From a virus (lineage: Duplodnaviria > Heunggongvirae > Uroviricota > Caudoviricetes): 64,000 nucleotides of DNA. The DNA lies in IMG/VR virus record IMGVR_UViG_3300033233_000007. One strand, 5' to 3'. Each line of letters starts with the position of its first letter. Position 1 is the stretch's first letter. The notes beneath the pieces were generated by a model. The model searched no databases. It saw only the letters and a program-made list of their open reading frames with translations, and was not told the DNA's origin. This document shows, in pieces, positions 2,344 through 63,786 of this stretch. The translations under genes and the position numbers were made by a program.

Positions 2344-3354
2344 TTATCTCTTCGGCTCGTCACGGCCTTGAAGGTCCATGACATTCTTAATGGGCTTGAG
2401 AATCTCCGGGTGTTCGAGGAACACGCGCTCCCATTCCGTGTCCTTAAAGGCGTAGTCGCCGAACTTCATCATCGGCGACCCCTCCTCAACCTTGATGCGG
2501 CCGTGGCGGACCAACACTTCCTTCAGGCCGCTGTAGGGCTCGAAGCCCGTGTCGAACTTGAAGCGAAGCGTGGCGTGGCGAAACGGCGGCCCCAGCGCGT
2601 TCTTGATGGCTTCGACCTCCACGAGAATGCCGCTGACGACGCCCGTCGTGGGGCTCGAAATCATGCCTTCCTTCTTGAACATGAGCCGCGCGCTGGCGTG
2701 GTACTTGGGCGCACGGCCGCCGGGGCTGTCCTTGTACGCGAACAACCCGCCGATGTTCATTCGAAGCTGATTGACGCCGATGAACGCCACGTTCTTGCGG
2801 TGCAGTTGACCGAGGATGGCGCGGAAGCTGGCGCTGATGAGCCGGGCCCGCTTGGCCATCTCAGGCTTGCCAGGATCGTAGTCCTCATCAAGCTCCTCGA
2901 TCAGCGGGGTCGCAGCCAGAGAGTCCAACACTACGACCGTCGGAACATCGGGATCGGCAGTCTGGGCGACGCGACCAAGGAGCTTAATCGCCGCTTCCAA
3001 GGACTCGCCGACGCTGTAGCCGATAGCGTCGAAATTAACGCCCATCTTCTCCGCGAAACTTCGGTCCGTCTTGGACTCAGGGTCGATGAGGATGGCTGCG
3101 CCCCCCGCCCGCTGGAACGCGGCGATAGCCGCATAGCAGAAAGCGCTCTTGGCTGTCGACGGGTCGCCAAGGCACTCGATGTACCGTCCGCACGGGATTC
3201 CGTCACCGAGGATGATGTCGATGGCGTGAATCCCCGTGCGGATACACCGTGCGTGCCTGTACTCCTGAAGCTGAGCGATCAGACGGGCCAAGGTCGGCGC
3301 ACTAGGCGCCGCCTTGACCAGTCTGACCTTCTTGGGCTTTTGAGGCTTCCGCAT
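2344..3354 (-). CDS. RecA/RadA-like recombinase (Sak4/UvsX-type)
   Basis: Walker A GDPSTAKS and Walker B VVVLDSLAA. The size and layout are RecA-fold. Confidence 0.7.
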   Translation of the reverse strand: MRKPQKPKKVRLVKAAPSAPTLARLIAQLQEYRHARCIRTGIHAIDIILGDGIPCGRYIECLGDPSTAKSAFCYAAIAAFQRAGGAAILIDPESKTDRSFAEKMGVNFDAIGYSVGESLEAAIKLLGRVAQTADPDVPTVVVLDSLAATPLIEELDEDYDPGKPEMAKRARLISASFRAILGQLHRKNVAFIGVNQLRMNIGGLFAYKDSPGGRAPKYHASARLMFKKEGMISSPTTGVVSGILVEVEAIKNALGPPFRHATLRFKFDTGFEPYSGLKEVLVRHGRIKVEEGSPMMKFGDYAFKDTEWERVFLEHPEILKPIKNVMDLQGRDEPKR

Positions 3355-4221
3355 CTACTTCTTCAAGAAAGTCCTGAGCTTGTCCTTGAGCCGGTCCTCA
3401 AGCTGAGGATTCGCGGGAGCCGAGGACGCCGGCTGAGCCGCAGGCGCAGACTGCGCGGCCGGGGGCGGCAGCGCGGGTTCGTCGTCGGCCGTCTCGACTT
3501 CGTCCTTTCCGCCTTCTTCGGTCAGGGTCTTAGCCGCCATGAAGTCAGAAGCGGGCATTTGACCGGAACAGAAGGCCGCGATCTCCTCGGAGGTCTTCAC
3601 GCGGCCGTTGATGATCTGGTCAAGGTTGTTAAGCCTTTGCAGAACAGTCTTGTCCTTGAGGGGACACGAACCGGCCTCGACGAGGGCGAGATAGTCGGGG
3701 AACGTCTCGCCGTCGCCGGTACGCTTGCTTTTCTTTTCGAGGTTGACGTTGTTACCCTTCTCCGCGTCCTCGAAAGGGAGAATGGCCCCCGTGGAACTAC
3801 CGACCTGCTGACGGCGAAGCTGATGCAAGACCTTCTCCCCGTAGGGATAAATCTTGACGTCGCTCGGGCTGCTAACGACGATGATATTCGAGCACGCCCG
3901 CGACTTGGAGCGCAGCTTGCCCGCAAGCTTCTTGTCGGCCTCGTCCTTCGTATTCCAAAGACCGCGCACGAAATCACAAAGCGTGCAGTGGGCCGCGATC
4001 GTCGCCTTCGGACAAGTGATCGCCACGCGATCCCCCGTCTTCGGGTCGTCGAAATAGTGAACGCCGTATTCCTTGTACCACACGTCCGAGCCGGTCCACG
4101 GCGGGAGAATGCGGATGAGATAGTTGCCGTCCTCTTGCGGCGTCCACCATCCGCGCTCGCGCTCTTCCATGCGCTTCTGCTGCTGCCGGAAGTTCTCCTT
4201 GATCTTATCGTAATTCGTCAT
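3355..4221 (-). CDS. putative ssDNA-binding protein (gp32-like), start at MTNYDK
   Basis: Cys/His zinc cluster CPKATIAAHCTLC and an acidic C-terminal tail. AAGGAG RBS before the ATG at 4221. It sits in the replication block. Confidence 0.4.
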   Translation of the reverse strand: MTNYDKIKENFRQQQKRMEERERGWWTPQEDGNYLIRILPPWTGSDVWYKEYGVHYFDDPKTGDRVAITCPKATIAAHCTLCDFVRGLWNTKDEADKKLAGKLRSKSRACSNIIVVSSPSDVKIYPYGEKVLHQLRRQQVGSSTGAILPFEDAEKGNNVNLEKKSKRTGDGETFPDYLALVEAGSCPLKDKTVLQRLNNLDQIINGRVKTSEEIAAFCSGQMPASDFMAAKTLTEEGGKDEVETADDEPALPPPAAQSAPAAQPASSAPANPQLEDRLKDKLRTFLKK

Positions 4222-4231
4222 CGAACACTCC

Positions 4232-4717
4232 TTAACCCAAATGAAGGTTCTTCTTGATCCTGTCGACCTCGGCAGCGCTGGGAGACGACCCTTCGCCACC
4301 ACGACTCCTGGCCAACTGGACCAGGGTGTCTTTTCTCATGTAAAAGGAATCCCGAAGGACGTTGAGCAGACGCTCGGACTCTTCGGCAATCTGCGCCCGA
4401 TGACACAGGTCGCGATAGGTCTCGTCGGACCGCACAACCGCCTTGATGGCGGCCTCGGTCGGCTTCTTCTTTTCTCCTTCGGTTTTCTCACGCTCGGCGA
4501 CCGACAGCGTATACTCAAGCTCGCTGAGTTCGGCATCAACGCGGACGCGGTGCGACCGCGCACGTTCATGGATCACGGCGAACCACGCGTAGAGCGACGC
4601 CTGCCGCCCCAGTTCGAAGTCAATGTCATCGCGGTCGATCTGAAGCTCTTTGGCGAGGTCGAAATTCAGAGTCTCGTCGCCGACGACGATCTTCAAGACG
4701 TGCGTGCGGTCGGGCAT
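4232..4717 (-). CDS. hypothetical protein (161 aa)
   Basis: ORF lying between the SSB-like gene and the polymerase, on the same strand. Confidence 0.45.
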   Translation of the reverse strand: MPDRTHVLKIVVGDETLNFDLAKELQIDRDDIDFELGRQASLYAWFAVIHERARSHRVRVDAELSELEYTLSVAEREKTEGEKKKPTEAAIKAVVRSDETYRDLCHRAQIAEESERLLNVLRDSFYMRKDTLVQLARSRGGEGSSPSAAEVDRIKKNLHLG

Positions 4718-7700
4718 TACGTGGTCTCCGAAAAAGCCGACTTCAAAGCGGCATGGTAGATGCGAGCAAATTTTCTGACGGCGGACTCGAAGACGGATAG
4801 TTGCGCGGGTTCGCGAAGGACCATGTTCGGGTGAATCGCACCCACGACGAGCGCGCCGGCGTCGGTCTTAAACGTGGAGCCGTTGGCTTTGACGATGCTG
4901 CCTTTGCCGCCCACGGCCTCCCACGCCCGTCTGCCCAGCGCGAGAATCAACGAGGGCTTGATCTCGTCGATCTCCTTCTTGAGCCACGGGCACTCGGGCG
5001 TCTTTTCCTCACCGGCGTAGGGCCGGCACTTGAACGCATTCGAGATGACCAGGTGTTCCCTGTTGATTTTGAGATGCTCGAGCAGAGCCATAATCAGTTC
5101 GCCCGACTCTCCGAGGAGGGGCCTTCCGCGCCGATCCTCCACGCGGCCGGGGTCCTGGCCGACGACCATAACGTTCCACTTCCCGACCTCGACGGGCACG
5201 GGGGCGCGACAGAATTTCCTGCGGTCGCATTGGGTGCAGAGCTTCGTCTCTTCGGCGAGCATGGGCACGCGCTTGGCCGGCCGGATTTGAGGAAGCACGC
5301 GGTCGGCGCCCGTCGCGGCGTCGATAAGGCCGCCGGGCAGCTTTCTGAGCTTGAGCCGATCTTTGAACTCGTAGTAATTCTGGTAAGGCCCGTGCGACGA
5401 GCGCTCATCGAAGATGCCTTTAGCGAAGGCCGCCGTGACGCCGGGGATGTCGAGCAGGGCTCGGCGGACGCCGCCGTTTTGCGGCGTCCAGAAAATGTCG
5501 GAGTGGTTGAAGCTGAAGGGCAGAACCTCAACGCCCATTTCCTCCATCTCGTCGAGAAGCTGGCGTTTCATTTCATCGCCCTTCTTGTTCTCCTTGTCTT
5601 CGGCGACGTTAAGCGCGGAGGCGTAAAGGTCGAGCGTGCGATGGCGCTTAAGCCAGCCGATCTGATAAGCCAAGAGCGAGTAGGCCGTGGCGTGGCTTTT
5701 GTTGAACGAATAACGCCCCATCCCCTCAAGCTGATCCCACAGCGCCGCGCCCTCTTCCGCCGTCAGCGTCTTTTGCCGCAGACATCCTTCGACGAACTTG
5801 CTCTTCCATGCAGCGAACGATTGCGCGCCCGTGAGCTTCTTGGCAATGGATTTTCGGACGCCGTCGGCCTCCGTCCACGAGAAGCCGGCGACGCGCGTGC
5901 ACAGCATCATCACGTCTTCCTGGAAGACAATCAACCCGGCAGGGTCCTCGTGATAGCGGTTGGCGAGGCCCGCGGGGTCCGTCTGGCCGAGCCCGCCGGG
6001 ACGGAAGGCCGCATTCGCGAACACCGTGTCTTCGAACTTCGCAGGCTTGAGCATCATGAGAAACGCCTTCATCCCCGACGTGGAGAATTGCGGCGTACCT
6101 GCGGTGCGGCCTTCGGAGAAGTCCGTATAGACGGCGGCATCATCGAGCGGAATCATCGCCAGCGCGCTCTCGAAAGGGGCGAGGATGTCCAGCGTACTGT
6201 TGCCCAGAAGGTCGATCTTCAGATGGCCGATGTCGTCGGCGTCCTGAAGGTCCCAGCAAAGCAGGCCGTTGACCATGTAGCCGCGACCGAGCCCATTTAT
6301 GGGAGAACTGGAAATTACGAATCCACCGGCGTGCGCCCCGGTCTGACGGACTTTCCCGACGAGGCGGTTGGCAAATTCGGCCGCGAGCGTACTGAGCTTT
6401 CGAAGCTCGGCCACGACGGGATGGCCGTCGAGCGTCTTTCGTTCGTCTTCGGCCCAATCCGTTTCCTCATCAGGGTCGTGAAGCTTCACATTTTTCTCAA
6501 GGTCCTTGAGCACGCCGTAAGTGCGGGCCGCGTCGCGGGCGGCTTGGCGAACGCCGTACTTCGAGTACGTCGCGATCTGGGCCACGCGCTCGGCGCCGAA
6601 GACCTCGCTGAGAATTTCGGGAACGCGTCGGCGCACGGCCACAGGCAGATCGAGGTCGACGTCAGGGAGAGAGCCGACTCGTCCTGGGGCGTAGAACCTT
6701 TCGAATATGAGGTCGTGCCTGATGGGATCGAGAATCGAAATGCCCAGAAGGTGCGCCACGAGGCAGCCGCCGACGGAGCCGCGGGGGCCCACGAGCGCCC
6801 CACGCTTCTTGAACTCGTCGACGACTTTCTGCACGAGCAGCAGATACTCCGCGAGGCCGGCTTCGATGAGCGTCTTAAGCTCGTACTCCGCACGGTCGTA
6901 GTATTTCGGTTTGTCGGGGACATTGAGCTTCGAGAGCGCGGCGTCGACGCGTTCGATGAGCACCGTATTAGGATCATCGCAGACCTTGGCGATGGGCAGA
7001 CGGTCGTGCGGGAGGTCCGTGATCTCGCAGCGGTCGGCGATCTCCGCTGTCGTGGCGATGGCGCGAACGGCTTCGTCTTCGGTCAGGCCCGCCTTTTGCA
7101 GGTGCTCGTAGATTTCGCCCGGCGTCATGAGGTAGCTCATCTTCGTCGAGAACTTCCACGCCTTGGGGTCGTCGATGGCCTTCAGATCGGCCACGGCCAA
7201 GAGCGCGTCGTGGAAGGGCTTGTCGGTGGCGCACGCGAAGTGGCAGTCAACGCTCGCCGAAATGGGCCGGTTGAAGTGATCGGCCAACTGGACGACGATG
7301 CGGTTGAGCTTGATCTGCTCGTCCCAGTCGTCGACGGGCATGACCTCGAAATAGAAATCATCGCCGTAGGCCTTGACGAAGGGCTCAAGGTCGTCGATGG
7401 CTTTCTCCGATTTCCAAAACGGTGAACTGTAGCAGCCGGAAAGGACGACGAGACCCGAGCCAGCAGCTTCAAGCACCTTCGCCAGCGGCACGGTCAGGCG
7501 CTTGAGGCGCTTCTTTTCGATGACGCCGGAGCCGAGGATAGAGGAAAGGGCGGCGAAGCCCTTCAAGTCGCGGCAGAGGACCGTGAGGTGGAAAATTTTA
7601 TCGCCGTCATAGGCCGTCGTAACGTAAAGCTCGCACCCCAAAATCGGCTTGATGCCGGTCTTGCGGCAGGAGGCGATGAAGCGGGGGATGCCGCTGATCG

Positions 7701-7827
7701 AGCCGTGGTCCGTGATGGAGCAGGCCGAGAAGCCCGCCGCCTTAGCGAGTGTCGGAAGCTCGTCTACGCGGATCAGGCTGTCGCGGTAGCTGTGATCCGT
7801 GTGGGCGTGTAAGAGCGCGATGTTCAC
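4717..7827 (-). CDS. dnaE: DnaE-type DNA polymerase III alpha (PHP + polymerase core) fused to a C-terminal family-4 uracil-DNA glycosylase domain
   Basis: N-terminal PHP segment MNIALLHAHTDHSY. DnaE core motifs GPRGSVGGCLVAHLLGISILDP and AHAGGFVIS. The C-terminal 150 aa carry a CxxC cluster, GQDPG, GRPLLGESGELI and HPN, which are UDG4-like. Confidence 0.85.
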   Translation of the reverse strand: MNIALLHAHTDHSYRDSLIRVDELPTLAKAAGFSACSITDHGSISGIPRFIASCRKTGIKPILGCELYVTTAYDGDKIFHLTVLCRDLKGFAALSSILGSGVIEKKRLKRLTVPLAKVLEAAGSGLVVLSGCYSSPFWKSEKAIDDLEPFVKAYGDDFYFEVMPVDDWDEQIKLNRIVVQLADHFNRPISASVDCHFACATDKPFHDALLAVADLKAIDDPKAWKFSTKMSYLMTPGEIYEHLQKAGLTEDEAVRAIATTAEIADRCEITDLPHDRLPIAKVCDDPNTVLIERVDAALSKLNVPDKPKYYDRAEYELKTLIEAGLAEYLLLVQKVVDEFKKRGALVGPRGSVGGCLVAHLLGISILDPIRHDLIFERFYAPGRVGSLPDVDLDLPVAVRRRVPEILSEVFGAERVAQIATYSKYGVRQAARDAARTYGVLKDLEKNVKLHDPDEETDWAEDERKTLDGHPVVAELRKLSTLAAEFANRLVGKVRQTGAHAGGFVISSSPINGLGRGYMVNGLLCWDLQDADDIGHLKIDLLGNSTLDILAPFESALAMIPLDDAAVYTDFSEGRTAGTPQFSTSGMKAFLMMLKPAKFEDTVFANAAFRPGGLGQTDPAGLANRYHEDPAGLIVFQEDVMMLCTRVAGFSWTEADGVRKSIAKKLTGAQSFAAWKSKFVEGCLRQKTLTAEEGAALWDQLEGMGRYSFNKSHATAYSLLAYQIGWLKRHRTLDLYASALNVAEDKENKKGDEMKRQLLDEMEEMGVEVLPFSFNHSDIFWTPQNGGVRRALLDIPGVTAAFAKGIFDERSSHGPYQNYYEFKDRLKLRKLPGGLIDAATGADRVLPQIRPAKRVPMLAEETKLCTQCDRRKFCRAPVPVEVGKWNVMVVGQDPGRVEDRRGRPLLGESGELIMALLEHLKINREHLVISNAFKCRPYAGEEKTPECPWLKKEIDEIKPSLILALGRRAWEAVGGKGSIVKANGSTFKTDAGALVVGAIHPNMVLREPAQLSVFESAVRKFARIYHAALKSAFSETT

Positions 7828-7833
7828 TCACAA

Positions 7834-7852
7834 AGCTATAGTAGTCAGGGCA
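7834..7852 (-). promoter_or_regulatory. phage-type (T7-like) promoter motif CCCTGACTACTATAG, reverse copy facing dnaE
   Basis: Reverse complement of the recurring motif, about 10 nt upstream of the dnaE start at 7827. Confidence 0.5.
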
Positions 7853-7920
7853 TCCGCGTTCACGCCCGAGATTCTGAAAATAGTTCAACGAGTTTCGGAT
7901 TTGCGGCCGCGAACATGGAA

Positions 7921-7937
7921 GGGCCGACTACTATAGC
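7921..7937 (+). promoter_or_regulatory. phage-type promoter motif GGGCCGACTACTATAG
   Basis: Resembles ssRNAP promoters (T7 CGACTCACTATAG). It lies 8 nt upstream of the ATG at 7945. Confidence 0.5.
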
Positions 7938-7944
7938 TAAATAG

Positions 7945-9342
7945 ATGGAGATCGTCGTCGACAACGTCCTGAGCTACGTGAATGGCACGAAAGACGAATA
8001 CCGCGCCCTCGACAAGCTCCTGGCCGTGGAAGTCAAAAACGCATTCTGGATCAAGCAGCATACGCCTCAGTTCGACGGCATGTGGCACGCCTTCAACCGC
8101 CTTCGCGGCAGCTTTCCGACGGGACTGATCGGGCGCGTGCGGAAGGGGTTCCCCCTCGCCAAAATTCATGACCGCCGCGTGAAGCCACGGATCATCATGC
8201 AACCGAAACCCGACATGCTCAAGACGATAACGCTGGCGGACTTTCAACTGGACGCGATCACGGCGGCACTTCATCACGGGCGCGGCGTGCTGGCCTTGGC
8301 CGTGAATTCCGGCAAGAGCGCGTGTGCCACGGCGATTTCGCTCTGCGTCGCCGGCCGCACGCTCTGGCTCGTCCACCGCAAGGACCTCATGTACCAATCG
8401 GCGGAAATGTACGAGCAGTACACGGGGCAGAAACCCGCGCGGTTCGGCGACCACATCTACGAGGATATCACGACCCGCGCCGTCACCATCGCCATCGTCC
8501 AGGCTATCAATCTGGCGCTCGACGGTCAGAAAAATATGCTCGAGGGCTTCTCGACACTCATACTCGACGAGGGGCACGCACTAGGGCCCCCTAAGCGTTT
8601 TTATAAAGTCGCGCAGTTCTGCCCCGCTTACGTCAGGATCGCCATGAGCGGTACACCTTGGAACCCAAAAGACCCCGAGCGCAATCTCAAGCTCGAGGCG
8701 ACGACGGGGCCCGAAATCGCCAAGATTAAATCCTCCAAGCTCATCGAGATCGGATGGAGCGCGCGGCCGACAATGTTCTACCACGACGGCTTCGGCGGCG
8801 CCCGCAGCTTCGGACCATGGGCCGAGGCGCGACGCACGGTCATCGAAGACTGCCCGAACCGTAATCGCATTGTCCTGGCCGTCGCGCGCAAAGCCGCAGA
8901 GGAGGGCAAGGCGTGCCTTATCATGTGCGACACGATCCGCCATTGTCGCATGATCTGCGATCACCTCGTCGAACTCAATCTCGACGCAAAGCTCGTCACA
9001 GGCCAGCATAAGGGAAAAGACCGCGTCGAGGTCCGGCAGAACTTCCGCGCGGGCATCGTACCGATCGTCGTTTCGAGCCCAACTTGGGACGCCGGAATTA
9101 GCATAGAAAATATCAGAATTCTCGTCATCGCCGCCGGAGGCGAGTCCGCCCAGCGCTATCTGCAACGCGTGGGCCGCGGCATGCGTATCATGAAAAATAA
9201 AACCGCCGTCGAAATCCACGACTTCGTCGACGGCGGCTCCAAGCACACGCTCAAGCACACGATCTCGCGGATCAAGACGGCGCGAGACGAGGGCTTCGAG
9301 ATCGTCGAGGTCGATCATTCCAAGGAGACGGCCAATGCCTGA
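7945..9342 (+). CDS. SF2 DNA/RNA helicase (DEGH box)
   Basis: Motifs AVNSGKS, LILDEGH, SGTP and QRVGRGMR. Confidence 0.8.
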   Translation: MEIVVDNVLSYVNGTKDEYRALDKLLAVEVKNAFWIKQHTPQFDGMWHAFNRLRGSFPTGLIGRVRKGFPLAKIHDRRVKPRIIMQPKPDMLKTITLADFQLDAITAALHHGRGVLALAVNSGKSACATAISLCVAGRTLWLVHRKDLMYQSAEMYEQYTGQKPARFGDHIYEDITTRAVTIAIVQAINLALDGQKNMLEGFSTLILDEGHALGPPKRFYKVAQFCPAYVRIAMSGTPWNPKDPERNLKLEATTGPEIAKIKSSKLIEIGWSARPTMFYHDGFGGARSFGPWAEARRTVIEDCPNRNRIVLAVARKAAEEGKACLIMCDTIRHCRMICDHLVELNLDAKLVTGQHKGKDRVEVRQNFRAGIVPIVVSSPTWDAGISIENIRILVIAAGGESAQRYLQRVGRGMRIMKNKTAVEIHDFVDGGSKHTLKHTISRIKTARDEGFEIVEVDHSKETANA

Positions 9343-9682
9343 GTTCGACGGAAAGCTTCAGGACAACGAGGTCCTCCAGAGACTCGTCAGAAGCGTCATC
9401 GCGTCCATGAAAAGCGGCACGGCCACGTGCATCCTCTGCCGGCGCACACTCCCGAAGAGCACGGGCGTCTGCGGCGCGTACTTCCCGAACCGCGACGTCG
9501 TCACCGTCAAGGGGCCGGCCTACAGGATCAGCGCCTACGCCATGTGCGACGACTGTATCGACGCCAAGGGTATTGAAGAGGCGACGCGAAAGGCCACGCA
9601 GGAACTCGTCGCCGGCGGCGTGTTCCTCGATCGCACGATGTCGTCGGAACCGCGGGCGCTCGGTTTCCCGGAGGGGGCGTGA
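9335..9682 (+). CDS. hypothetical Cys-containing protein
   Basis: ORF overlapping the neighbouring start and stop codons. Confidence 0.4.
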   Translation: MPEFDGKLQDNEVLQRLVRSVIASMKSGTATCILCRRTLPKSTGVCGAYFPNRDVVTVKGPAYRISAYAMCDDCIDAKGIEEATRKATQELVAGGVFLDRTMSSEPRALGFPEGA

Positions 9683-11625
9683 TGGACGACGACCTCAAGA
9701 TCGACCGCATCTTGGCCCCCGGCGGCCTCGTGGCGCAGAAGCTTCCGGGCTACGAAGCCAGAGCCGGGCAGATCGAGATGGCCGTCGCCGTTGAACAGGC
9801 GCTGAAGGCGCAGAAGCATCTCGACATCGAAGCTCCTTGCGGCGTCGGCAAAACCTTCTCATACCTCCTGCCGCTCATCCTCGAGTGCGCCGAGAACAAG
9901 AAGACGGCCGTCGTGTGCACGGCCAACATCGCCCTTCAAGAGCAGTTGATAGACAAGGACTTGCCGTTCCTGAAGAAAATCCTGCCCGTCCCGTTCACGT
10001 ACACGCTCGCCAAAGGAATGGGCAACTACCTCTGCCTCGACCGGCTCCACCACGCGCGCGACAGCAGCCACGAACTTTCCGACGAAGCCGTGGAAGAACT
10101 CCGGGGCCTCGACGACTGGACCGTCAAGACCCAGGACGGCGACAAGAGCGAGATCGCGCTCAAGAGCGACCTGTGGCCCGCGATCTCCGGCAACTCCGAC
10201 CTCTGTAACGGTCGGCGCTGCGACGACTACGTGCCCTGCTTCATCATGAAAGCGCGCCGCACGTTCAAGACCGTGCACGTCGTCATCTGCAACTACCATC
10301 TCTTCTTCGCCAACGCGTCCATCCGCATGGAGTCGGGGCTTGAAGACCCGATCCTGCCCGAGTTCGACTACGTCGTCTGCGACGAAGCGCACGAAGCGGC
10401 CGACATCGCCCGAGACTACTTCGGCCTGAACCTCAAGCGCGGGTCCGTGAAGTTCCTCAAGCGCGCGGATAAGTACCTCGGCGATGCCGACCTCATGCAG
10501 CGGATCGGCAGCGCCAACGCCGAATTTTTCGACTCGGCCGAGACGTTCCTGAAGAACTCCAGAAACAAGAAGTGCTCCCGCTTCACCGCGCCCGGAACGC
10601 TCAAAGGCGACGGACTTGCCGCGGCCGTTTCGGAGTACGCGGAGAAAACCGAAGCCATGTTCGAAGGCACGTCGAAAGACGATAAGGAAAAGCGAGGGGC
10701 GCTGGAGAAGTGCATGCTGGCCGCCCACAGAATCGCCGGCGCTGCCGAAGGGTTCATGACGCTCGAGAACACGAACATGACGTACTTCGTGGAGGAAAGC
10801 GATGGGCGCATTAGCGTGCGGTCGAAGCTCATCGACGTGGGGGCTGTCCTGAAATCCGAACTTTTCGACCGCGCCAAGTCCGTCATCTCCACGTCCGCAA
10901 CGCTCACCGACGTCGGCAAGTCCTTCAGCTACTTCGACCGCGAACGTGGGAAGGTGCAGGGCGAGCGGCAGATCGTCGAATCGCCCTTCAACTTCAAAAA
11001 ACAGTGCCTGATCGTCACGCCAAACCTGGGCATCGTCGACCCGAACGCACCCGGCTTCGTCGAAGGCATGGCCGCCGTCATCAGCCACGTCATCACGGAA
11101 CTTGACGGCCGGACGATGTGCCTGTTCACGTCGTACAAGAACCTCAAAGCCTGCGCCGAGATCGCCAAGCGCAGCACCGACATCGAAATCCTGCAACAGG
11201 GCGACGCGCCGCGGATGAAGCTTCTGGAACGGCTCAAGACCGCGGGCCGCGGTGTCGCGCTCTTCGGCACGGACAGCTTCTGGCAGGGCGTCGATGTTCC
11301 GGGCCAGGCGCTGTCGTGCCTGACGATCGACAAGATTCCGTTCGAGCCGCCCGACGACCCCGTGCTGCAGGCCATGGGCGAACGGGACGCCGGGCTGTTC
11401 ATGAACGTATCGCTGCCGCGGGCCACGATCAAGCTGCGTCAGGGCTTCGGCCGGCTGATCCGAACGCTCACGGACGTCGGCGCCGTCGTGCTTTTCGACC
11501 CCCGCCTGCTCGTGAAACCGTACGGGAAACGAATCCTCACAAGCTTGCCCGAGTGCCGACTCACCGCCGACGTGGAGGAAATCTTCGCGCTCGTGCCGCC
11601 TGTTGAGGTAAAAGAAAAGGCGTGA
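9679..11625 (+). CDS. DinG/XPD(Rad3)-family ATP-dependent helicase
   Basis: Walker A CGVGKT, a DEAHE box and Fe-S cysteines CLDR...CNGRRC...C. Confidence 0.8.
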   Translation: MMDDDLKIDRILAPGGLVAQKLPGYEARAGQIEMAVAVEQALKAQKHLDIEAPCGVGKTFSYLLPLILECAENKKTAVVCTANIALQEQLIDKDLPFLKKILPVPFTYTLAKGMGNYLCLDRLHHARDSSHELSDEAVEELRGLDDWTVKTQDGDKSEIALKSDLWPAISGNSDLCNGRRCDDYVPCFIMKARRTFKTVHVVICNYHLFFANASIRMESGLEDPILPEFDYVVCDEAHEAADIARDYFGLNLKRGSVKFLKRADKYLGDADLMQRIGSANAEFFDSAETFLKNSRNKKCSRFTAPGTLKGDGLAAAVSEYAEKTEAMFEGTSKDDKEKRGALEKCMLAAHRIAGAAEGFMTLENTNMTYFVEESDGRISVRSKLIDVGAVLKSELFDRAKSVISTSATLTDVGKSFSYFDRERGKVQGERQIVESPFNFKKQCLIVTPNLGIVDPNAPGFVEGMAAVISHVITELDGRTMCLFTSYKNLKACAEIAKRSTDIEILQQGDAPRMKLLERLKTAGRGVALFGTDSFWQGVDVPGQALSCLTIDKIPFEPPDDPVLQAMGERDAGLFMNVSLPRATIKLRQGFGRLIRTLTDVGAVVLFDPRLLVKPYGKRILTSLPECRLTADVEEIFALVPPVEVKEKA

Positions 11626-12677
11626 AAGCGTACTACAACGACAACGACCCCTACGTCTGCGCGTGGATCAGCAATCTCATCAAGGCAGGAGAAATATCGC
11701 ATGGCGACGTCGACGACCGGCCGATCCAGAAAATCCGGCCAAAAGACCTCGATGGCTACGTCCAACATCACTTTTTCGCGGGCATCGGCGGCTGGGCGCT
11801 CGCGCTCAAACTCGCGGGATGGCCGGACGACCGGCCGTGCTGGACCGGCTCTCCGCCCTGCCAACCGTTCTCGACGGCGGGCAAGCGTAAAGGATTCACC
11901 GACAAGCGCCATCTCTGGCCGGCGTGGTTCCGGCTCATCCGCAGGTGCCGCCCTGGCATTATTTTTGGCGAACAGGTTGGAAGCAGGGACGGCCTTGCCT
12001 GGCTCGATCTTGTTTCGCGTGACCTGGAAAGAACGAGTTACGCCATCGGGGCGCTCGATCTCTGCGCTGCGGGCGCAGGCGCTCCGCACATTCGTCAACG
12101 GCTGTACATCGTGGCCGACTCCGCGCACGCCGACGGGCGGACCCGAAAGCGCCAAGCGCAAGAAAGAACTTGGGCGGAAGAACTCGGGAGGAGGCGATCT
12201 TCAGGCGGCGGCGCTTCTGACCGGATGGCCAAGTCCGATGGCGGGTTCGCCCGCGTCAAAAAAGTACAACGAGGCGGGCAACAACGACAGCAGCCGCAGG
12301 ACCGTATCTCTAGCGAGATGGAACTCTCCGCGAGCGACAGACGGGGGGCGACCCCCACGGCGAGCGAGAAGGTGCGATCCCACCCGGAAATTTCTGGAAG
12401 GGCGAACGCCGAACGCCCGCGAAGCAGCGGCTTCTGGTCCGACGCCGGATGGCTCCTCTGCCGCGACGGCAAGTACCGGCCCGTCCCTCTTGCTGAATCC
12501 GAAGTTCTCGGCGTGGCTCCAAGGATTCCCTCCGGCGTGGGACAGGCTTGCCCCGAAAGGTTCCCCGTCACGGGGAAGACGCCGAGGCGCATCGCACGTC
12601 TGAGGGGCTTCGGAAATTCAATCGTTCCTCCACTCGCCGCCGAATTCGTAAAGGCGTACATGGAACTGAAGCCGTGA
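11622..12677 (+). CDS. DNA (cytosine-5) methyltransferase
   Basis: Motif I FAGIGG, motif IV PCQPFS and a C-terminal GNSIVPP. Confidence 0.8.
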   Translation: MKAYYNDNDPYVCAWISNLIKAGEISHGDVDDRPIQKIRPKDLDGYVQHHFFAGIGGWALALKLAGWPDDRPCWTGSPPCQPFSTAGKRKGFTDKRHLWPAWFRLIRRCRPGIIFGEQVGSRDGLAWLDLVSRDLERTSYAIGALDLCAAGAGAPHIRQRLYIVADSAHADGRTRKRQAQERTWAEELGRRRSSGGGASDRMAKSDGGFARVKKVQRGGQQRQQPQDRISSEMELSASDRRGATPTASEKVRSHPEISGRANAERPRSSGFWSDAGWLLCRDGKYRPVPLAESEVLGVAPRIPSGVGQACPERFPVTGKTPRRIARLRGFGNSIVPPLAAEFVKAYMELKP

Positions 12678-12757: not shown

Positions 12758-13342
12758 GTGAAGTACGTGATCGTCGACTTGGAAGCCGCGTGCTGGCGGG
12801 CCGAACGTCCTGAAGACGCCGCACGTGTCGCCGAATACCAACACGAGCATTCCGAGATCATCGAGATCGGCGCCGTGAAGTTGGGTGGGAAAGACGCTAC
12901 GGATGACGAGTTCGACAGCTTCGTTAAGCCCACGATCGTGCCCACGCTCTCCGACTTTTGCATGAAGCTGACCACGATATCGCAGGAGGACGTCGACACG
13001 GCACCGATCTTTCCCGTCGTTTTCGCCGACTTCGTCAGCGGACTCGAGGACGTGGAAAGCACGATCCTGTGCTCGTGGGGACAGTATGATTGGGACATGC
13101 TCAAGAAGGAGTGCGACCGTTACGGGATCGTCTTCCCATTCGTCCACCACGTCAACGTGAAGGAACGCTTTATGCAGAAGTACGGAGGCAAACACGTCGG
13201 TGTACAGAAGGCGCTCAGGAAGCTTGGGATGATAAAGGAACTCAGGAAGCTCGGCCTGACCTTCACCTTCACGGGTATCCCTCATCGTGGCATCGACGAC
13301 GCTCGTAACATCGTCACGATCTTCAAGGCCCTCGGCGGCTAA
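12758..13342 (+). CDS. DEDDh 3'-5' exonuclease (DnaQ-like)
   Basis: Exo motifs VDLEA, EIIEIGAV and HRGIDDA. Confidence 0.75.
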   Translation: MKYVIVDLEAACWRAERPEDAARVAEYQHEHSEIIEIGAVKLGGKDATDDEFDSFVKPTIVPTLSDFCMKLTTISQEDVDTAPIFPVVFADFVSGLEDVESTILCSWGQYDWDMLKKECDRYGIVFPFVHHVNVKERFMQKYGGKHVGVQKALRKLGMIKELRKLGLTFTFTGIPHRGIDDARNIVTIFKALGG

Positions 13343-13539: not shown

Positions 13540-14388
13540 TTGCAAAATCCACGAGCGTGTGTCTTGACTCTCTACCAGGGAAGACGTAAAGTGATCTCGC
13601 TACCACGATGCTTAACTCCCACGATCCGTGCCGGCGCCCTCACTTTAGCGTCGTTGGTAGCACTTCACGTCAGTATGAGGCCCGGCGCGGTTCATGGGAG
13701 TTTGGAGGCGTGCGTGAAAGCGATACCGCTTACGCAGGGCAAGTTCGCGTGGGTAGATGATGCGGACTTTGAGAAGTTGTCGACGCTCAAGTGGGGCGCC
13801 TTAAAAGGCAGGCGCTACTGCTGGTACGCGAGGCATGTCGTGAAGATGGGTCAGAAAATCGGCGCAGTCTTGATGCACCGAATGATCTTGAGCGCTCCCT
13901 CGGGTTTCGAAGTTGACCACATCGACGGAGACGGGCTGAACAACACGCGAAAAAATTTGCGGCTTTGCACCAGTTCGCAAAATAAGCACAACTTTCCTAA
14001 GTTTCGCAACGGGTCGTCAAGGTACAAGGGCGTCTCGTGGAGCAAGCATTCTAAAAAGTGGAATGCTCAGATCGTGCGCCGCCATCTCGGGCTCTTCTCC
14101 AACGAACGTGCCGCTGCCCGTGCGTATGATAAGGCGGCCATGAAGATGTTCGGCAAGTTCGCCAGAGTGAATTTTAACGGGCCGTTGAAGACGGGTCCGA
14201 CCGCCAAGCAGTTCGAGCGGGAGGCACGCCGCTATGATTTGGCGGCTCGGTTCGCCATATCAAAACATGACGGAAGTCGGTTTTGTTCTTACGCTCGAGA
14301 GCTTCGTAGGCAGGCGAAGATCGTGTGTGGATCGAAGCCTTTAGCGCCCATGAAGACATTTTTCCGGGAAACTAGACGGAAAACTTGA
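13540..14388 (+). CDS. HNH-AP2 homing endonuclease (true start probably the GTG/ATG near 13717)
   Basis: HNH_3 segment IPLTQGKFAWVDDADF...VDHIDGDGLNNTRKNLRLCTSSQN. AP2 segment YKGVSW...AARAYD. Confidence 0.75.
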   Translation: MQNPRACVLTLYQGRRKVISLPRCLTPTIRAGALTLASLVALHVSMRPGAVHGSLEACVKAIPLTQGKFAWVDDADFEKLSTLKWGALKGRRYCWYARHVVKMGQKIGAVLMHRMILSAPSGFEVDHIDGDGLNNTRKNLRLCTSSQNKHNFPKFRNGSSRYKGVSWSKHSKKWNAQIVRRHLGLFSNERAAARAYDKAAMKMFGKFARVNFNGPLKTGPTAKQFEREARRYDLAARFAISKHDGSRFCSYARELRRQAKIVCGSKPLAPMKTFFRETRRKT

Positions 14389-15436: not shown

Positions 15437-17392
15437 ATGCTGCCGGAATCCCATCCGCTTTATCAGTCGTTTCTGCTTTTGTCGGCGCTTTTTAAGGCGG
15501 CCGATGCCCGCTGGTGGGTCGAGTTTCGCTTCATTAGCCGCGAGGGCGGCCCCGTGAAGACGGAGTGGCTCAGGGTCGAGCAACTGGCCGACGGGTTCGA
15601 GTTCCTCGTCCCGCACATCCAGAAGATGAACGACGACGGCTACGACTGCTACTTCGGCGTCAACCCGCGGGTCCTGAAGCCCAAGACCGGCGCCGGCACC
15701 AACGACATCGTCTCGCACGGGTGCAGCGTCTGGCTCGACATCGACCGCGACGACGCCGTTACGATTCTCAAAGCCGCCGATCCCCTGCCGTCGGCGGTCG
15801 TTAAGACGGGGTCGGTGGGCCATGCCCAGGCTTACTGGTTCTTCGACGCTCCCGTGCCGATCGAGTCGGCCGTGGCGTTGACCAACAAGTACGTGGGCCG
15901 GTACCACGGCGACAACACGAGCGACCCCGCCCGCGTGTTCCGGCTGCCCGGTACGATGAATCTCAAGCACCCCGAGGGCCAGATCAGCGAACTGATCGCT
16001 CTCGACGAAGACGCCCGCATCCAGAACGTGGAGACCGCGATTGAGCAGGAGCAGGCCAAGCCCAAGACCGTCGAGGACCTTTTGAGAAGCGGCGCCGTCT
16101 CTTTCGAGATCGTCCAGATCATCCGGGAAGGCCACTCCGTCGCGCCGATCGATCCCGAGAAGGGCCGCGTGGACAAATCCAAACTTGACTTCCGCGTCGC
16201 CGCGGAGCTTTTCGTCGCCGGCGCGACCGAGGACATGGTCCGCGACGTCTTCACGAACCCGATGTACAAAATATCCGCGCACTACCTCGAGGAGGAAAAG
16301 CAGAAGGCCAACGGGACGAACTACATCGAGCGCACGATCGAGGCCGCGCGCTCCCGCGCCGACAACGAGATCAACCGCTCGATCATTCAGGACAAGGAAC
16401 TCGTCATCTTCGACGTGGCCCGCCTCAAGGACATCCCGCCGGTCCAGTGGCTTGTGCGGCCCATCATCGCCATGAACTCCCTGACGATCGTGGCCGGCGA
16501 GCAGAAAGTCGGAAAGAGCCTCGGCGTGCTGGACCTGGCGCTCATGCTGGCGGCCGGCCATCACGACAAGTGGCTCGACCGCTATGAAGTCGCCAGCCAG
16601 AAACGCGTGCTCATCTGCACGAGCGAAACGGGTGAGGCCACGCTCAAGACGCGGATGGTCGCCATCGCCAATTCTCGTGGGATCGACTGGCTCGGACTCT
16701 CGGGCCGTCTGTTCTACCAGCACGTCCCTTTCACGCTGACGAACTACGAAATCCAGAACGCGATGATCCGCGCGCTGGAGAAGCATAAGATCGAGGTGCT
16801 CATCATCGATCCCCTGAATCGCTACCACCTATCCAATGAGAACGACGCCAAGGACATGACCATGCTCCTTCAGGGCCTCGACAAAGTCGCCCGGAGCGCG
16901 GGCGTCGTCAGCACGATACTGGTGCACCACTTCAACAAGCCCTCGGGCGACAACCCGAAGATCGGCGCCCACCAGCTTCGCGGGTCCACGGTCCTGGCCT
17001 CGTGGGGGTCGACTTATATTTTGTGCTCGCGCCGCGAGAGCTTCGGCGGCAAGACGTACGTGCGCTTCAGCTTTGAACTGCGGGAGGCCGAGACGCCGAT
17101 GCCGTTTTCCATGGAACTCGATTCCATGACCCTGCGTTTTCGCGACTACTCCATCGAGACCGAGCGGGTCATGCAGACGCTGGCGATCGTGCGACAGTTG
17201 CCTGCGGCGGCCAACGAAGAGATCGTCTCGCGGCTCACGGAGAATAAGATCGTCTCTAATAAGACCGAAGCGCAGAACCTCATCCAGCGGGCCAAGAGGA
17301 TCATGACGGATCAGAAGGACGTGGAGCAGAAGATCGACGGGACCGCCGAAGAGGCCGGTCCCGATGTCGGGCCCGATACGTCTACGACTTGA
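15437..17392 (+). CDS. primase-polymerase (prim-pol) fused to a RepA/DnaB-like helicase
   Basis: The N-terminal part is prim-pol-like with the segment VWLDIDRDD. The C-terminal part has Walker A AGEQKVGKS and Walker B VLIIDPLN. Confidence 0.8.
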   Translation: MLPESHPLYQSFLLLSALFKAADARWWVEFRFISREGGPVKTEWLRVEQLADGFEFLVPHIQKMNDDGYDCYFGVNPRVLKPKTGAGTNDIVSHGCSVWLDIDRDDAVTILKAADPLPSAVVKTGSVGHAQAYWFFDAPVPIESAVALTNKYVGRYHGDNTSDPARVFRLPGTMNLKHPEGQISELIALDEDARIQNVETAIEQEQAKPKTVEDLLRSGAVSFEIVQIIREGHSVAPIDPEKGRVDKSKLDFRVAAELFVAGATEDMVRDVFTNPMYKISAHYLEEEKQKANGTNYIERTIEAARSRADNEINRSIIQDKELVIFDVARLKDIPPVQWLVRPIIAMNSLTIVAGEQKVGKSLGVLDLALMLAAGHHDKWLDRYEVASQKRVLICTSETGEATLKTRMVAIANSRGIDWLGLSGRLFYQHVPFTLTNYEIQNAMIRALEKHKIEVLIIDPLNRYHLSNENDAKDMTMLLQGLDKVARSAGVVSTILVHHFNKPSGDNPKIGAHQLRGSTVLASWGSTYILCSRRESFGGKTYVRFSFELREAETPMPFSMELDSMTLRFRDYSIETERVMQTLAIVRQLPAAANEEIVSRLTENKIVSNKTEAQNLIQRAKRIMTDQKDVEQKIDGTAEEAGPDVGPDTSTT

Positions 17393-29658: not shown

Positions 29659-29695
29659 TGCTTGACTCTTTGCTTACAGATTGTACACTGTCGTT

Positions 29696-30898
29696 GTGAA
29701 AGTTCGCTACCGTTTTCGCTTTTACCCATCCGACGAACAGAAATTCGAGCTTGCCCGCGTCTTCGGCGCCTGCCGGTACATCTACAACTGGGCGCTTCGG
29801 ATGCGCACGGACGCCTACTATAAGGACGGCGTCTCCGTCGGGTACTGCGAATCCAGCACCCGGCTCACCGCGCTCAAACGCGATCCCGAACACGCCTGGC
29901 TCAACAAGACTTCCTGCGTTCCCACGCAACAGGCGCTTCGCCACCTCCAGACGGCGTTCGTCAACTTCTTCGAGAAGCGTAGCGCATATCCGAAGTTCAA
30001 GCGTAAGGACGGTGAGCAGTCTGCCGAGTACACAAGGTCCGCGTCCAAGTGGGACGCTAAGAACCGTAACCTCGAACTCTCTGGCCTCGGAAGACTCAAG
30101 GTCCGCTGGTCCCGCAACTTCAAAACTCCTCCGACCACCATCACCGTAACCAAGGACACGGCGGAACGCTACTTCGTCACGCTCTGTCTGGACGAGACGG
30201 TTTTGAAGCTCGAACCCGTTCACAAAGCCGTCGGCATTGACCTCGGCATCATGGCTCTCGCCACCCTTTCCACAGGCGAGAAAATCGAGAATCCGCGGCA
30301 CCTGATCCGTGCCCAAGCCGCGCTCACCCACGCCCAGCGCGATCTGTCCCGTAAGTCCAAAGGATCGAACCGGCGTGCCGCTCAAAAGCTCAAGGTCGCC
30401 AAGCTTCACGCCCACGTCGCCGACGCCAGAGTCGACTACCTGCATAAAATCACCACTGATCTCGTGCGCCGTTTCGACGTGATCGCCGTCGAGAACTTGA
30501 ATGTCCGCGGCATGGTTAAGAACCACAACCTTGCCCGCGCTTTGAGCGACGCGGCCCTCGGCGAGTTCCTGTCGATGATCCGGTACAAGTGCGAATGGTA
30601 CGGACGCGAGCTTCGGACGGTGGACCGTTTCTACCCGTCCACGAAGCGATGCTTCGACTGCGGACACGTTCTGGAGGAACTTGATCTCGGTTGCCGCGTC
30701 TGGACGTGTCCCGAGTGCGGCAAGGAGCATGATCGCGATGTGAACGCCGCGAAGAATATTCTGGCGGCCGGACAGGCCGTGACTGCGCGTGGAGGGAAGG
30801 TAAGACCTAAGCGGGACAGTCACCGCAAGGGCGCATCCCTGAGAAGCGCGAACCATCTTGAAGCTACGCATATAGTTTCAGGAATCCCCGGACTTTAG
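29696..30898 (+). CDS. tnpB: TnpB (IS200/IS605-family OrfB, RuvC-like + zinc finger)
   Basis: N-terminal RYRFYPSDEQ...YNWAL and a C-terminal CFDCGH...WTCPECGKEHDRDVNAAKNI. Confidence 0.8.
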   Translation: MKVRYRFRFYPSDEQKFELARVFGACRYIYNWALRMRTDAYYKDGVSVGYCESSTRLTALKRDPEHAWLNKTSCVPTQQALRHLQTAFVNFFEKRSAYPKFKRKDGEQSAEYTRSASKWDAKNRNLELSGLGRLKVRWSRNFKTPPTTITVTKDTAERYFVTLCLDETVLKLEPVHKAVGIDLGIMALATLSTGEKIENPRHLIRAQAALTHAQRDLSRKSKGSNRRAAQKLKVAKLHAHVADARVDYLHKITTDLVRRFDVIAVENLNVRGMVKNHNLARALSDAALGEFLSMIRYKCEWYGRELRTVDRFYPSTKRCFDCGHVLEELDLGCRVWTCPECGKEHDRDVNAAKNILAAGQAVTARGGKVRPKRDSHRKGASLRSANHLEATHIVSGIPGL

Positions 30899-33977: not shown

Positions 33978-34283
33978 CTAAACCGGTGGTTTCCAGTTCC
34001 GCCACTGCTCGCAGCCGTTAAGCACGCGCTGAAGCTCTTCCTTCACGGCCATCAGCCGCGCGTCCGGCTTGCGGAACTCGACGACTTCGATGAGACGGAT
34101 CATGCCGCGGGCGAAGTCGTCGATCTCTTCGTTCCAGCGATCGAGGACCTCGGCGTCATCCTTCGTAGCCGCCCAGCCGTGGAGGTCGCTGTCGACGCGG
34201 AACATTTCCTTCACGGACTGTTCGACGAAGCGGATGAGCCACTCGCCTTCGAGGGCGTTGCGGATGTCGGCGTCGATGTCCAT
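33978..34283 (-). CDS. hypothetical protein (101 aa), translationally coupled to the upstream HNH gene (TAATG)
   Basis: ORF MDIDADIRNALEGEW.... Confidence 0.35.
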   Translation of the reverse strand: MDIDADIRNALEGEWLIRFVEQSVKEMFRVDSDLHGWAATKDDAEVLDRWNEEIDDFARGMIRLIEVVEFRKPDARLMAVKEELQRVLNGCEQWRNWKPPV

Positions 34284-34882
34284 TACGGCTCCAGCGGCAC
34301 ATTCCAGTAGGCCCTGTTGACGAACGCGTCCCACGATTCGCGGCGGTGCATCACGGGCACGACGAGCGCGGGCGTCCACTTGGGCTTGACGGGCATCTTG
34401 CGCAGGCGCATCTTCGCCTCGACGGGCGTGCGGTTGGCCTTGCGCTTGTTGCAGTCGATGCACGCTACGACGCTGTTTTCCCAACTGGAGATGCCCCCGC
34501 GGGACCGGGGGATCACGTGGTCGAGCGTGAGGTTCGCCAGGCCCGGTTGAATGCCGCAGTACATGCAGACGTAGCGGTCGCGCTTGAAGATGTTGCGGCG
34601 GGAAAAGACGATCTCGCGTGCGGGGACGCCGTCGTAGAACGTCATGACCATGACTTCGGGTACGCGGATGCGCAGCCGGATCGTGGAGATGTGGGGTTTG
34701 TTCTCCTCCGCACGCACGGCCGCCCAGTCGTCGAAGTCGTAGGTCTGGTACGTCTTGGGCTCGACGAACTTTGCGGAGCCCTTGCACACGAGGTTGATGG
34801 CGTTCTTTACGGTGTCGAGGCGTACGGGTAGCCAGTTCTTGTTGAGGCTCAGGACCGGCCACGTCAGGCAATCGGCGTTCAT
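34283..34882 (-). CDS. HNH endonuclease
   Basis: HNH core CMYCG...LTLDHVIPRSRGG...CIDCNKRK. Confidence 0.75.
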   Translation of the reverse strand: MNADCLTWPVLSLNKNWLPVRLDTVKNAINLVCKGSAKFVEPKTYQTYDFDDWAAVRAEENKPHISTIRLRIRVPEVMVMTFYDGVPAREIVFSRRNIFKRDRYVCMYCGIQPGLANLTLDHVIPRSRGGISSWENSVVACIDCNKRKANRTPVEAKMRLRKMPVKPKWTPALVVPVMHRRESWDAFVNRAYWNVPLEP

Positions 34883-38378: not shown

Positions 38379-38461
38379 TGGTGGGCGCGTACGGAATCGA
38401 ACCGCCTAGTCTTCGACAACGGGTTTACAACCCGCCTCCGATCCCACTCGGCAGCGCGCCC
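38379..38461 (-). tRNA. tRNA-Tyr(GUA) (class II)
   Basis: Acceptor GGGCGCG perfect. Anticodon arm GCGGG-UUGUAAA-CCCGU with a 12-nt variable arm. Confidence 0.55.
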
Positions 38462-43588: not shown

Positions 43589-43606
43589 TGGCCTGACTAC
43601 TATAGT
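43589..43606 (+). promoter_or_regulatory. phage-type promoter motif GGCCTGACTACTATAG
   Basis: Same motif as at 7921 and 63728. It lies 21 nt upstream of the ATG at 43627. Confidence 0.5.
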
Positions 43607-63727: not shown

Positions 63728-63745
63728 CGAACGCATGGGGCCTGA
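63728..63745 (+). promoter_or_regulatory. phage-type promoter motif GGCCTGACTACTATAG
   Basis: It lies 42 nt upstream of the ATG at 63787 and is followed by a TTTTTAGGAGAGG RBS. Confidence 0.5.
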
Positions 63746-63786
63746 CTACTATAGCAGGGTAGAGGCACATTTTTAGGAGAGGCACA

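Follow-up and report, generated by a model that had tools for sequence, protein, structure and literature searches.

A family-4-type uracil-DNA glycosylase domain at the C-terminus of a phage C-family DNA polymerase

Fusions between a DNA polymerase and a domain of the superfamily of uracil-DNA glycosylases (UDGs) are known from phages with family A polymerases. In the SPO1- and SP15-like PolA-UDG proteins the active domains excise deoxyuridine (dU) located ahead of the active site in the 5' template strand, in the SP15-like ones the fused domain has two tasks, guiding the template and excising dU, and the N4-like PolA proteins keep a UDG domain without catalytic residues (bioRxiv 10.1101/2025.03.26.645540). 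For the UDG-like domains of the SPO1 and T5 polymerases a role in processivity has been suggested, with vaccinia D4 as the analogue (PMC3201878); the processivity role of D4 in its holoenzyme is documented (PMC4889955). In 2011 it was also pointed out that the C-terminal regions of viral C-family polymerases are unlike that of E. coli alpha and 'may include different structural domains' (PMC3201878). Here we describe such a polymerase, encoded on the minus strand at positions 4717–7827 of a 64,000-nt stretch of the caudoviricete record IMGVR_UViG_3300033233_000007; this whole stretch is called the window in the following. The protein, DnaE-UDG, consists of a DnaE-type polymerase followed by a family-4-type UDG domain. 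This fusion is a real, conserved phage gene, and its UDG domain is as conserved as its polymerase core. On balance, we lean towards reading it as the replicative C-family polymerase of a large uncultured phage, in which an active UDG, tethered by a flexible linker, replaces the OB, tau and clamp-binding tail.

The YerA41 and phiLo DNA polymerases (SPO1-/SP15-like; Missoury et al.) resemble the window protein, as read here, in being replicative phage polymerases to which a domain of the UDG superfamily is linked in cis. That of phiLo is of type IV, as is ours, active and degenerate lineages exist among both the PolA and the DnaE fusions, and surveillance of the template for uracil has been proposed for the PolA-UDG fusions as it is here. 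In contrast, the SPO1-/SP15-like fusions belong to family A and carry the UDG at the N-terminus, whereas the window protein belongs to family C and carries it at the C-terminus. The PolA-UDG proteins furthermore have a C-terminal extension for the bypass of apurinic/apyrimidinic (AP) sites and occur together with Pol X and ligase; our screen, in which about 40 open reading frames (ORFs) of the window, itself only half of a 125.8-kb contig, were compared non-exhaustively with Pfam and PHROG, revealed neither. Several PolA-UDG phages have hypermodified thymidine, whereas no such pathway was seen in the window. A structure from this group, PDB 9qhs, gives a weak match to the window protein in a PDB sequence search. 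In poxviruses, D4, a family-1-like UDG, forms an integral part of the viral replicase together with A20 and the family B polymerase E9; it contacts the template ahead of the polymerase and takes the place of a sliding clamp. Unlike the window's domain, D4 is joined in trans via the A20 bridge, and both the polymerase and the UDG belong to other families. Catalysis by D4 appears to be dispensable for replication (PMC4450493, PMC1936997). The best reading of these likenesses is that DnaE-UDG may be the C-family counterpart of the SPO1-/SP15-like PolA-UDG proteins and of poxvirus D4-A20-E9.

The gene is complete. It starts with GTG at 7827 and stops with TAA at 4719–4717, its N-terminus lines up with the starts of homologues, and an identical protein (P0001) is encoded on the 125.8-kb JGI contig. 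The gene and its domains, from the N-terminus on, are:

4717–7827, minus strand: complete DnaE-UDG gene, a single uninterrupted ORF of 1036 aa (Pfam, NCBIfam and PHROG matches)
6973–7827, minus strand: PHP domain, residues 1–285 (Pfam PHP at 6–163)
5548–6972, minus strand: palm, thumb and fingers of Pol III alpha, residues 286–760 (Pfam DNA_pol3_alpha at 300–542 and DNA_pol3_finger at 555–685; Foldseek)
5335–5547, minus strand: HhH module resembling the beta-binding domain, residues 761–831 (Pfam HHH_6 at 765–831, spanning profile positions 1–67 of 90)
5251–5334, minus strand: poorly conserved linker, residues 832–859 (alignment; predicted local distance difference test, pLDDT, 67–76)
4720–5250, minus strand: family-4-type UDG domain, residues 860–1036 (Pfam, TIGR00758, phmmer, Foldseek)

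The order is thus PHP, Pol III alpha palm/thumb/fingers, HhH, a linker of 28 aa and UDG. The preliminary description of this DNA had let the polymerase core run to about residue 880 and had assigned the last 150 aa or so to a family-4 UDG. The core is indeed present but ends at about 831, where the linker follows; the UDG family and its Cys cluster are borne out by profile search, by sequence comparison with the PDB and by the predicted fold, but the domain is longer than had been thought, about 175 aa (residues 860 to about 1033). The same five-domain architecture is found in 14 close homologues (39–51% identity) from JGI, NCBI, ENA and Logan. Mean pairwise identity among the relatives is 51% for PHP, 53% for the polymerase core and 50% for the UDG domain, but 21% for the linker. 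An AlphaFold2 model of the full-length protein, computed from 14 family members, reached a mean pLDDT of 86.3 and a predicted template-modelling score (pTM) of 0.78, with lower confidence in the linker only. Most family members have a semi-conserved x-L-F-[SD]-G in the linker (for instance ANLFSG, ESLFDG or QNLFSG), which is degenerate in the window protein (GLIDA); it resembles a clamp-binding motif, and its position is roughly that of QADMF in E. coli alpha.

The assignment of the C-terminal domain is supported by several comparisons. Pfam UDG (PF03167) matches residues 885–1016 with an E-value of 2.4e-20 and 73.5 bits against a gathering score of 24.3, so that the region from 880 to 1036, for which a missing UDG match had been named as the refuting outcome, gives a strong one. 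The NCBIfam family-4 profile TIGR00758 (UDG_fam4) matches residues 864–1020 (E 2.3e-24), and NF040953 scores 84.3 bits, below its curated cut-off of 250. In a phmmer search of the PDB the top UDG matches were 1ui0, 1l9g, 1vk2 and 4zbx, with E-values from 6e-19 (1ui0) to 1e-17. The structure prediction that had been proposed as a check points the same way: with Foldseek, the tail of the AlphaFold2 model has the fold of a family-4 UDG and superimposes on the Thermus thermophilus (Tth) UDG 1ui0/1ui1 with a target template-modelling score of 0.83–0.84 and a root-mean-square deviation of 2.1 Å at 31% identity. UDGs from Sulfolobus and Thermotoga and UdgX rank next.

Alignment to the UDGs of Tth, Thermotoga (Tma) and Sulfolobus (Sto) locates the following elements:

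5209–5238, minus strand: CTQCDRRKFC, with C864 and C867 as the first two predicted [4Fe-4S] ligands
5146–5160, minus strand: motif A GQDPG, residues 890–894, with QD where family 4 usually has E-[AG]
5026–5040, minus strand: NAFKC, with N930 corresponding to the uracil-recognising Tth N80 and C934 as third predicted Fe-S ligand
4990–4992, minus strand: C946 (in PECPW), fourth predicted Fe-S ligand
4825–4833, minus strand: motif B HPN where family 4 has H-P-[AS], with P1000 and with H999 corresponding to Tth H155, the His that stabilises the leaving group

The strings CTQCDRRKFC, GQDPG and HPN had been picked out beforehand and all lie at the expected codons, and the further string GRPLLG is present as well, with ESGELI after it. 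Other members of the UDG superfamily were considered and rejected. UdgX does not fit, as the alignment has a gap at the KRRIH R-loop with its cross-linking His109, motif A is not GEQPG and the PDB matches are weaker (E about 1e-11). Family 1 UNG shares only GQDP of its GQDPY, and motif B is HPNMVL instead of HPSPLS; furthermore the four Fe-S cysteines are present and no family 1 structure occurs among the PDB matches. Family 5 was rejected on motifs and match ranking. A fifth cysteine, C873 (5209–5211, minus strand), completes a C-x2-C-x5-C pattern; it is invariant in the 14-member clade, its position is a Cys in 73 of 131 fused representatives (see below), and stand-alone family-4 UDGs lack it.

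It had been asked if the domain keeps its catalytic residues, and for the most part it does. The equivalents of Tth H155, of N80, which recognises N3 and O4 of uracil, and of E47 (here E897) are present together with the four cysteines, while the stacking Phe and the motif-3 Asn are not (see below). C864, C867, C934, C946, N930 and E897 are invariant in the 14 sequences of the close clade, and H999 is kept in 13 of them. Thus the window protein shares fold, Fe-S cysteines and these three residues with Tth UDGa (1ui0, 1ui1), but differs from this stand-alone repair enzyme in having Leu and Gly in place of F54 and N89 and in the additional C873.

The motif A of family 4, G-E-[AG]-P-G, is replaced by GQDPG. 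Mutants of Tth UDGa allow this change to be judged (Xia et al. 2017, PMC5387724): E41Q lowers k2/Km 888-fold and G42D 89-fold, but the double mutant E41Q-G42D loses only 5.3-fold and keeps about 20% of the wild-type value. In the same work F54A lowered k2/Km 17-fold and N89A about 7-fold, and H155S reduced k2 more than 1000-fold with Km unchanged. GQDPG is the natural form of the E41Q-G42D pair, and a relative with 51% identity (P0002) has the same pair. This is most simply explained by selection to keep the UDG pocket working. The tethered UDG would then be catalytically competent, using a QD doublet in motif A instead of E-[AG], as far as can be inferred from its residues.

The polymerase part belongs to the C-family (DnaE type): PHP, DNA_pol3_alpha and DNA_pol3_finger all score above the Pfam gathering scores, and TIGR00594 gives 456.5 bits, above its cut-off of 434.35. 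The match to PRK05673 (E 3e-143) scores 479 against a cut-off of 1002 and hence stays below the DnaE1 equivalog level. In Foldseek searches of the PDB the first ~850 residues of the model match Pol III alpha of Taq, M. tuberculosis and E. coli at E-values of about 1e-50. The bacterial DnaE1 proteins (Taq 2hpi, 3e0d and 4iqj; M. tuberculosis 7pu7; E. coli 2hnh) are 26–28% identical to the window protein and share with it a PHP domain with full metal site, palm, thumb, fingers and HhH; in contrast to them the window protein has neither OB fold nor tau-binding domain. The palm residues D389, D391 and D393 (PDVDLDL) and D539 (KIDLL) are invariant in the 14 family members. These acidic positions we take to be those of the catalytic residues D401, D403 and D555 of E. 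coli. The PHP metal-ligand pattern H-H-D-H-E-H-C-D-H of proofreading DnaE proteins (Taq and M. tuberculosis type) is complete (H7, H9, D16, H41, E66, H80, C132, D194, H196) and likewise invariant in the 14 sequences. Its residues align with those of Taq alpha, D16 and D194 with the two Asp that are changed to Asn in entry 3e0d. Because of these invariant metal-site and palm residues and the alignment with Taq, the polymerase seems to be fully functional, with proofreading by the PHP domain as a probable activity.

What is missing is the C-terminal tail. Pfam detected an OB fold (PF01336) neither in the window protein nor in any of its 14 closest relatives, but did so in all cellular DnaE matches, and the alignment with the NCBIfam DnaE profiles breaks off near position 867 of 1146. 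Therefore the OB, tau and C-terminal clamp-binding regions are absent, and the earlier suggestion that the UDG stands in for them is confirmed. A recognisable internal clamp motif of the QADMF type was not found in the window protein either.

The fusion was followed through an exhaustive profile search of 1.84 billion cluster representatives, of which the best 150 (50%-identity clusters) were analysed. A UDG domain is present in 131 of them, C-terminal in 120 and N-terminal in 11. Catalytic motifs look intact in about 97 of the 131: the catalytic His is kept in 111, the Asn and the motif-A Glu in 110 each, and the complete set of four Cys in 103 (C864 in 119, C867 in 120). The position of F54 is Phe in 89 and Leu in 26, and the QD doublet occurs only in the window's own cluster. 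The N-terminal UDG domains group together and separately from C-terminal ones, an indication that they stem from a fusion event of their own; that both arrangements exist and cluster apart points to recurrent selection to link the two activities. The C-terminal architecture was also found in IMG/VR contigs. Several DnaE-UDG relatives contain inteins (P0009 and others of more than 1400 aa), as does RecA of a related contig (L005).

A scan of GTDB representative genomes gave no close relatives or prophages, 50,697 phage records contained no close relative (best identity about 30%, in the core only), BFVD held no full-length match, and a protein search with the UDG region alone returned one fragment. 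Literature searches joining DnaE or C-family, UDG and phage gave no description of the fusion, which may still have been published, and UDG goes unmentioned in a survey of bacterial polymerases from 2026. The fusion had been called unusual; this holds in so far as we found no paper describing it, but it is not rare, since no fewer than 131 clusters at 50% identity contain it. Polymerase-UDG fusions are known in family A; the C-family version occurs in databases but, so far as our searches showed, is uncharacterised and for the most part unannotated.

The dnaE of Pseudomonas phage nickie (RefSeq NC_042091, complete genome; 6259–9651, YP_009620731.1) is annotated only as 'DNA polymerase', but it has an unannotated C-terminal domain of the UDG superfamily (Pfam UDG, 47 bits), and the same is true of the Nickievirus phages phiK7B1, ZY21 and Nican01. 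The order PHP-pol-fingers-HhH-UDG is that of the window protein, but identity between the UDG regions is no more than about 24%. In nickie the motif-A consensus (LDGPS), the catalytic His (NPA) and the third Fe-S Cys (KCRP) of the domain have been lost; it is probably a pseudo-UDG. The gene neighbourhood is also similar, with genes for a single-stranded DNA-binding protein (SSB), RecA, an SbcD-like protein and exonucleases and a CobT/CobS-like pair. Methanobacterium virus PhiF1 (MK994522), like the window, has a family-4 UDG on a C-family polymerase, but there it is N-terminal, directly before PHP, with GLNPG as motif A, in a split polymerase and with an archaeal host. Its record already reads 'DnaE superfamily protein with N-terminal family 4 UDG domain', the only such annotation found. 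The PhiF1 polymerase (6010–10804) is divided over two overlapping ORFs (ORF58 and ORF57), first UDG and PHP and then the remainder; the second of them opens with a weak Hint-like segment, which may be an intein or reflect a programmed or accidental frameshift.

A role of DnaE-UDG as replicase is supported by its position amid SbcD-like, UvsX-like, gp32-like, helicase, DnaQ-like and primase-helicase genes. This module comprises:

1282–2340: SbcD-like nuclease (replication/recombination module)
2344–3354: UvsX/RecA-like recombinase (replication/recombination module)
3355–4302: gp32-like SSB (replication/recombination module)
4232–4717, minus strand: mostly helical protein of 161 aa, whose ATG overlaps the DnaE-UDG stop codon (TAATG; translationally coupled)
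7945–9342: superfamily 2 (SF2) helicase, divergent from DnaE-UDG
9679–11625: DinG-like helicase
11622–12677, plus strand: C5-cytosine DNA methyltransferase-like gene, inside the replication module
12758–13342: DnaQ-like exonuclease
15437–17392: primase-helicase

The cassette of helicase, DnaE-UDG, ORF of about 160 aa, gp32 and RecA recurs in three other contigs (L003, L004, L005), one of which is classed as viral in IMG/VR. As a tethered part of the replicase, the UDG would travel with the replisome and scan the DNA at the fork for uracil. Its most likely target would be template DNA that is still single-stranded and lies ahead of the active site, at the place which the OB domain, lost here, would take in Pol III alpha. 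Uracil arising from cytosine deamination or dUTP incorporation would be removed there and hence not be copied, and DNA binding by the UDG could add the affinity or processivity which the missing clamp-binding tail otherwise gives.

Several observations weigh against an active, replisome-tethered UDG. The TIGR00758 score of 86.1 bits lies below the curated cut-off of 125.3. The uracil-stacking Phe (F54) is replaced by L904, and the water-positioning Asn of motif 3 (Tth N89) is missing from the whole clade, with G939 in the window protein. Excision of uracil from a single-stranded template would create an abasic site which blocks a C-family polymerase, and neither AP endonuclease nor Pol X nor ligase was among the window ORFs screened; these also held no dUTPase and no thymidine-modification genes. 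The fate of abasic sites in the single-stranded template is the difficulty of this model; the screen identified no partner for bypass or base-excision repair. Furthermore, about a quarter of the fused representatives (about 34 of 131) have degenerate UDG motifs, and in the cultured Nickievirus DnaE proteins and in P0064 a degenerate domain has been kept, so that it can be retained without catalysis.

These last cases favour the idea that the domain is mainly a DNA-binding or processivity module replacing the clamp-binding and OB tail, its glycosylase chemistry being dispensable or vestigial. This is the main alternative, which we regard as possible but less probable. It would agree with the fact that the domain replaces exactly the region which gives cellular alpha its contacts to clamp, tau and single-stranded DNA, with the lack of a sliding clamp or clamp loader among the ORFs screened, and with the role proposed for polymerase-fused UDGs (PMC3201878) and documented for D4 (PMC4889955). 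On the other hand, the catalytic and Fe-S residues are invariant in the window's clade (H999 in 13 of 14), and the compensated QD pair would be difficult to account for if the active site were not under selection. The two roles do not exclude each other, as the SP15-like PolA domain guides the template and excises dU. In archaeal family B polymerases a read-ahead pocket binds uracil in the template and stalls the polymerase. By analogy the UDG might be a sensor without excision, a pseudo-enzyme that stalls or slows the polymerase at template uracil; a uracil-binding pseudo-enzyme had also been considered in the preliminary description. With Leu for F54 and without the motif-3 Asn, turnover could be low while binding persists. 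However, the conserved H999 corresponds to a residue (H155) that matters for chemistry and not for binding, which a pure sensor would not need, and Tth UDGa with E41Q-G42D is still catalytically active (PMC5387724). Because this chemistry-specific His is conserved we consider a pure sensor improbable.

Even less probable is that the protein serves as a specialised repair or translesion DnaE (DnaE2-like) for uracil and AP sites, with another polymerase as main replicase. Such a polymerase could lie in the other half of the contig, and the profile of error-prone DnaE2 (NF004225) does match (E 1.4e-85). Nevertheless, the DnaE1-type profiles match far better (PRK05673, 3e-143; TIGR00594, 456 bits and above cut-off), the full nine-residue PHP metal site suggests a capacity for proofreading, the gene is central in a conserved replication cassette with SSB, helicases, primase-helicase and DnaQ-like exonuclease, and no other polymerase was among the window ORFs screened. 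Finally, a fusion produced artificially by a chimeric assembly, or by a frameshift or missed stop merging two neighbours, was considered only since metagenomes can yield such artefacts; nothing spoke for it, and it can practically be dismissed: the architecture recurs across independent assemblies, in the 14 close homologues, the 120 C-terminal representatives, IMG/VR contigs and the complete nickie genome.

For a large clade of viral C-family polymerases, the C-terminal region noted as undefined in 2011 (PMC3201878) is here identified as a UDG domain, and RefSeq phage dnaE genes, such as those of Nickievirus, turn out to harbour an unannotated degenerate one. If the UDG of the window protein is active, replisome-coupled repair of uracil would be a general and convergent solution across polymerase families A, B and C, and with this protein nature would provide a test of the EG/QD correlated-mutation model for UDG catalysis. 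The protein would also be a compact single-chain DnaE which may need no clamp for processivity and may not tolerate dU in the template, and which could be of enzymological and biotechnological interest. A wider proposal, which we make tentatively, is that there is a large and so far overlooked lineage of phage C-family replicases which has exchanged the OB, tau and clamp tail for an active Fe-S UDG; this UDG would sit at the template entry, excise or at least detect uracil ahead of synthesis and also provide clamp-independent processivity. In that case, surveillance for uracil in cis would have arisen convergently on each of the three major families of replicative polymerases, family A (SP15-/SPO1-like), family B (the archaeal pocket, poxvirus D4) and family C, and GQDPG would be a natural family-1-type QD doublet working on a family-4 scaffold.

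Concerning the neighbours of the gene, the 161-aa protein is encoded between the DnaE-UDG and gp32-like SSB genes in each of the four related loci that were examined. Its only PHROG matches, phrog_1069 and phrog_2058, are of unknown function, and a single homologue was found; there was no PDB sequence match, and its AlphaFold2 model is poor (pLDDT 59). It could be a polymerase accessory protein or a UvsY-like mediator. The divergent intergenic region 7828–7944 between DnaE-UDG and the SF2 helicase contains an inverted pair of an 11-mer:

7835–7845, minus strand: ACTACTATAGC, candidate promoter element 8 nt upstream of the DnaE-UDG GTG
7927–7937, plus strand: inverted twin of ACTACTATAGC, 8 nt upstream of the start of the divergent SF2 helicase

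Altogether four copies are present in the window, where 0.1 would be expected; the other two are at 43596–43606 (plus strand), about 21 nt upstream of an AAA ATPase gene, and at 63745–63755 (plus strand). Judged by sequence and position, ACTACTATAGC may belong to a promoter of the phage, perhaps one whose transcripts are leaderless or have short leaders.

Farther along, the window contains a terminase-like gene, HNH endonucleases, IS-type transposases and a VWA/AAA pair. The latter consists of a VWA-domain protein (41355–42827, plus strand) and the AAA ATPase (DUF5925+AAA; 43627–44772, plus strand), which resemble the CobT/CobS-like pair beside nickie dnaE. Directly downstream lies an IS-type transposase (44783–45994, minus strand; E 5e-43), which shares its PHROG (phrog_506) with a second one at 29681–30898 (plus strand; E 1e-127). 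Together with at least three HNH endonuclease genes (13540–14388, 34283–34882, 38461–39099) the load of selfish elements is unusually high for a phage-like genome. An ORF of 897 aa (47222–49915, plus strand) has a weak match to large terminase or HerA-like ATPases at about residues 520–630 and LAGLIDADG_3 at 282–370, which hints at a packaging ATPase into which an intein or homing endonuclease has been inserted. Apart from the C5-cytosine methyltransferase-like gene there is a separate N6/N4 methyltransferase at 60593–61651 (plus strand). If the genome carries 5-methylcytosine, deamination at these sites gives T and not U, which bears on what the tethered UDG meets.

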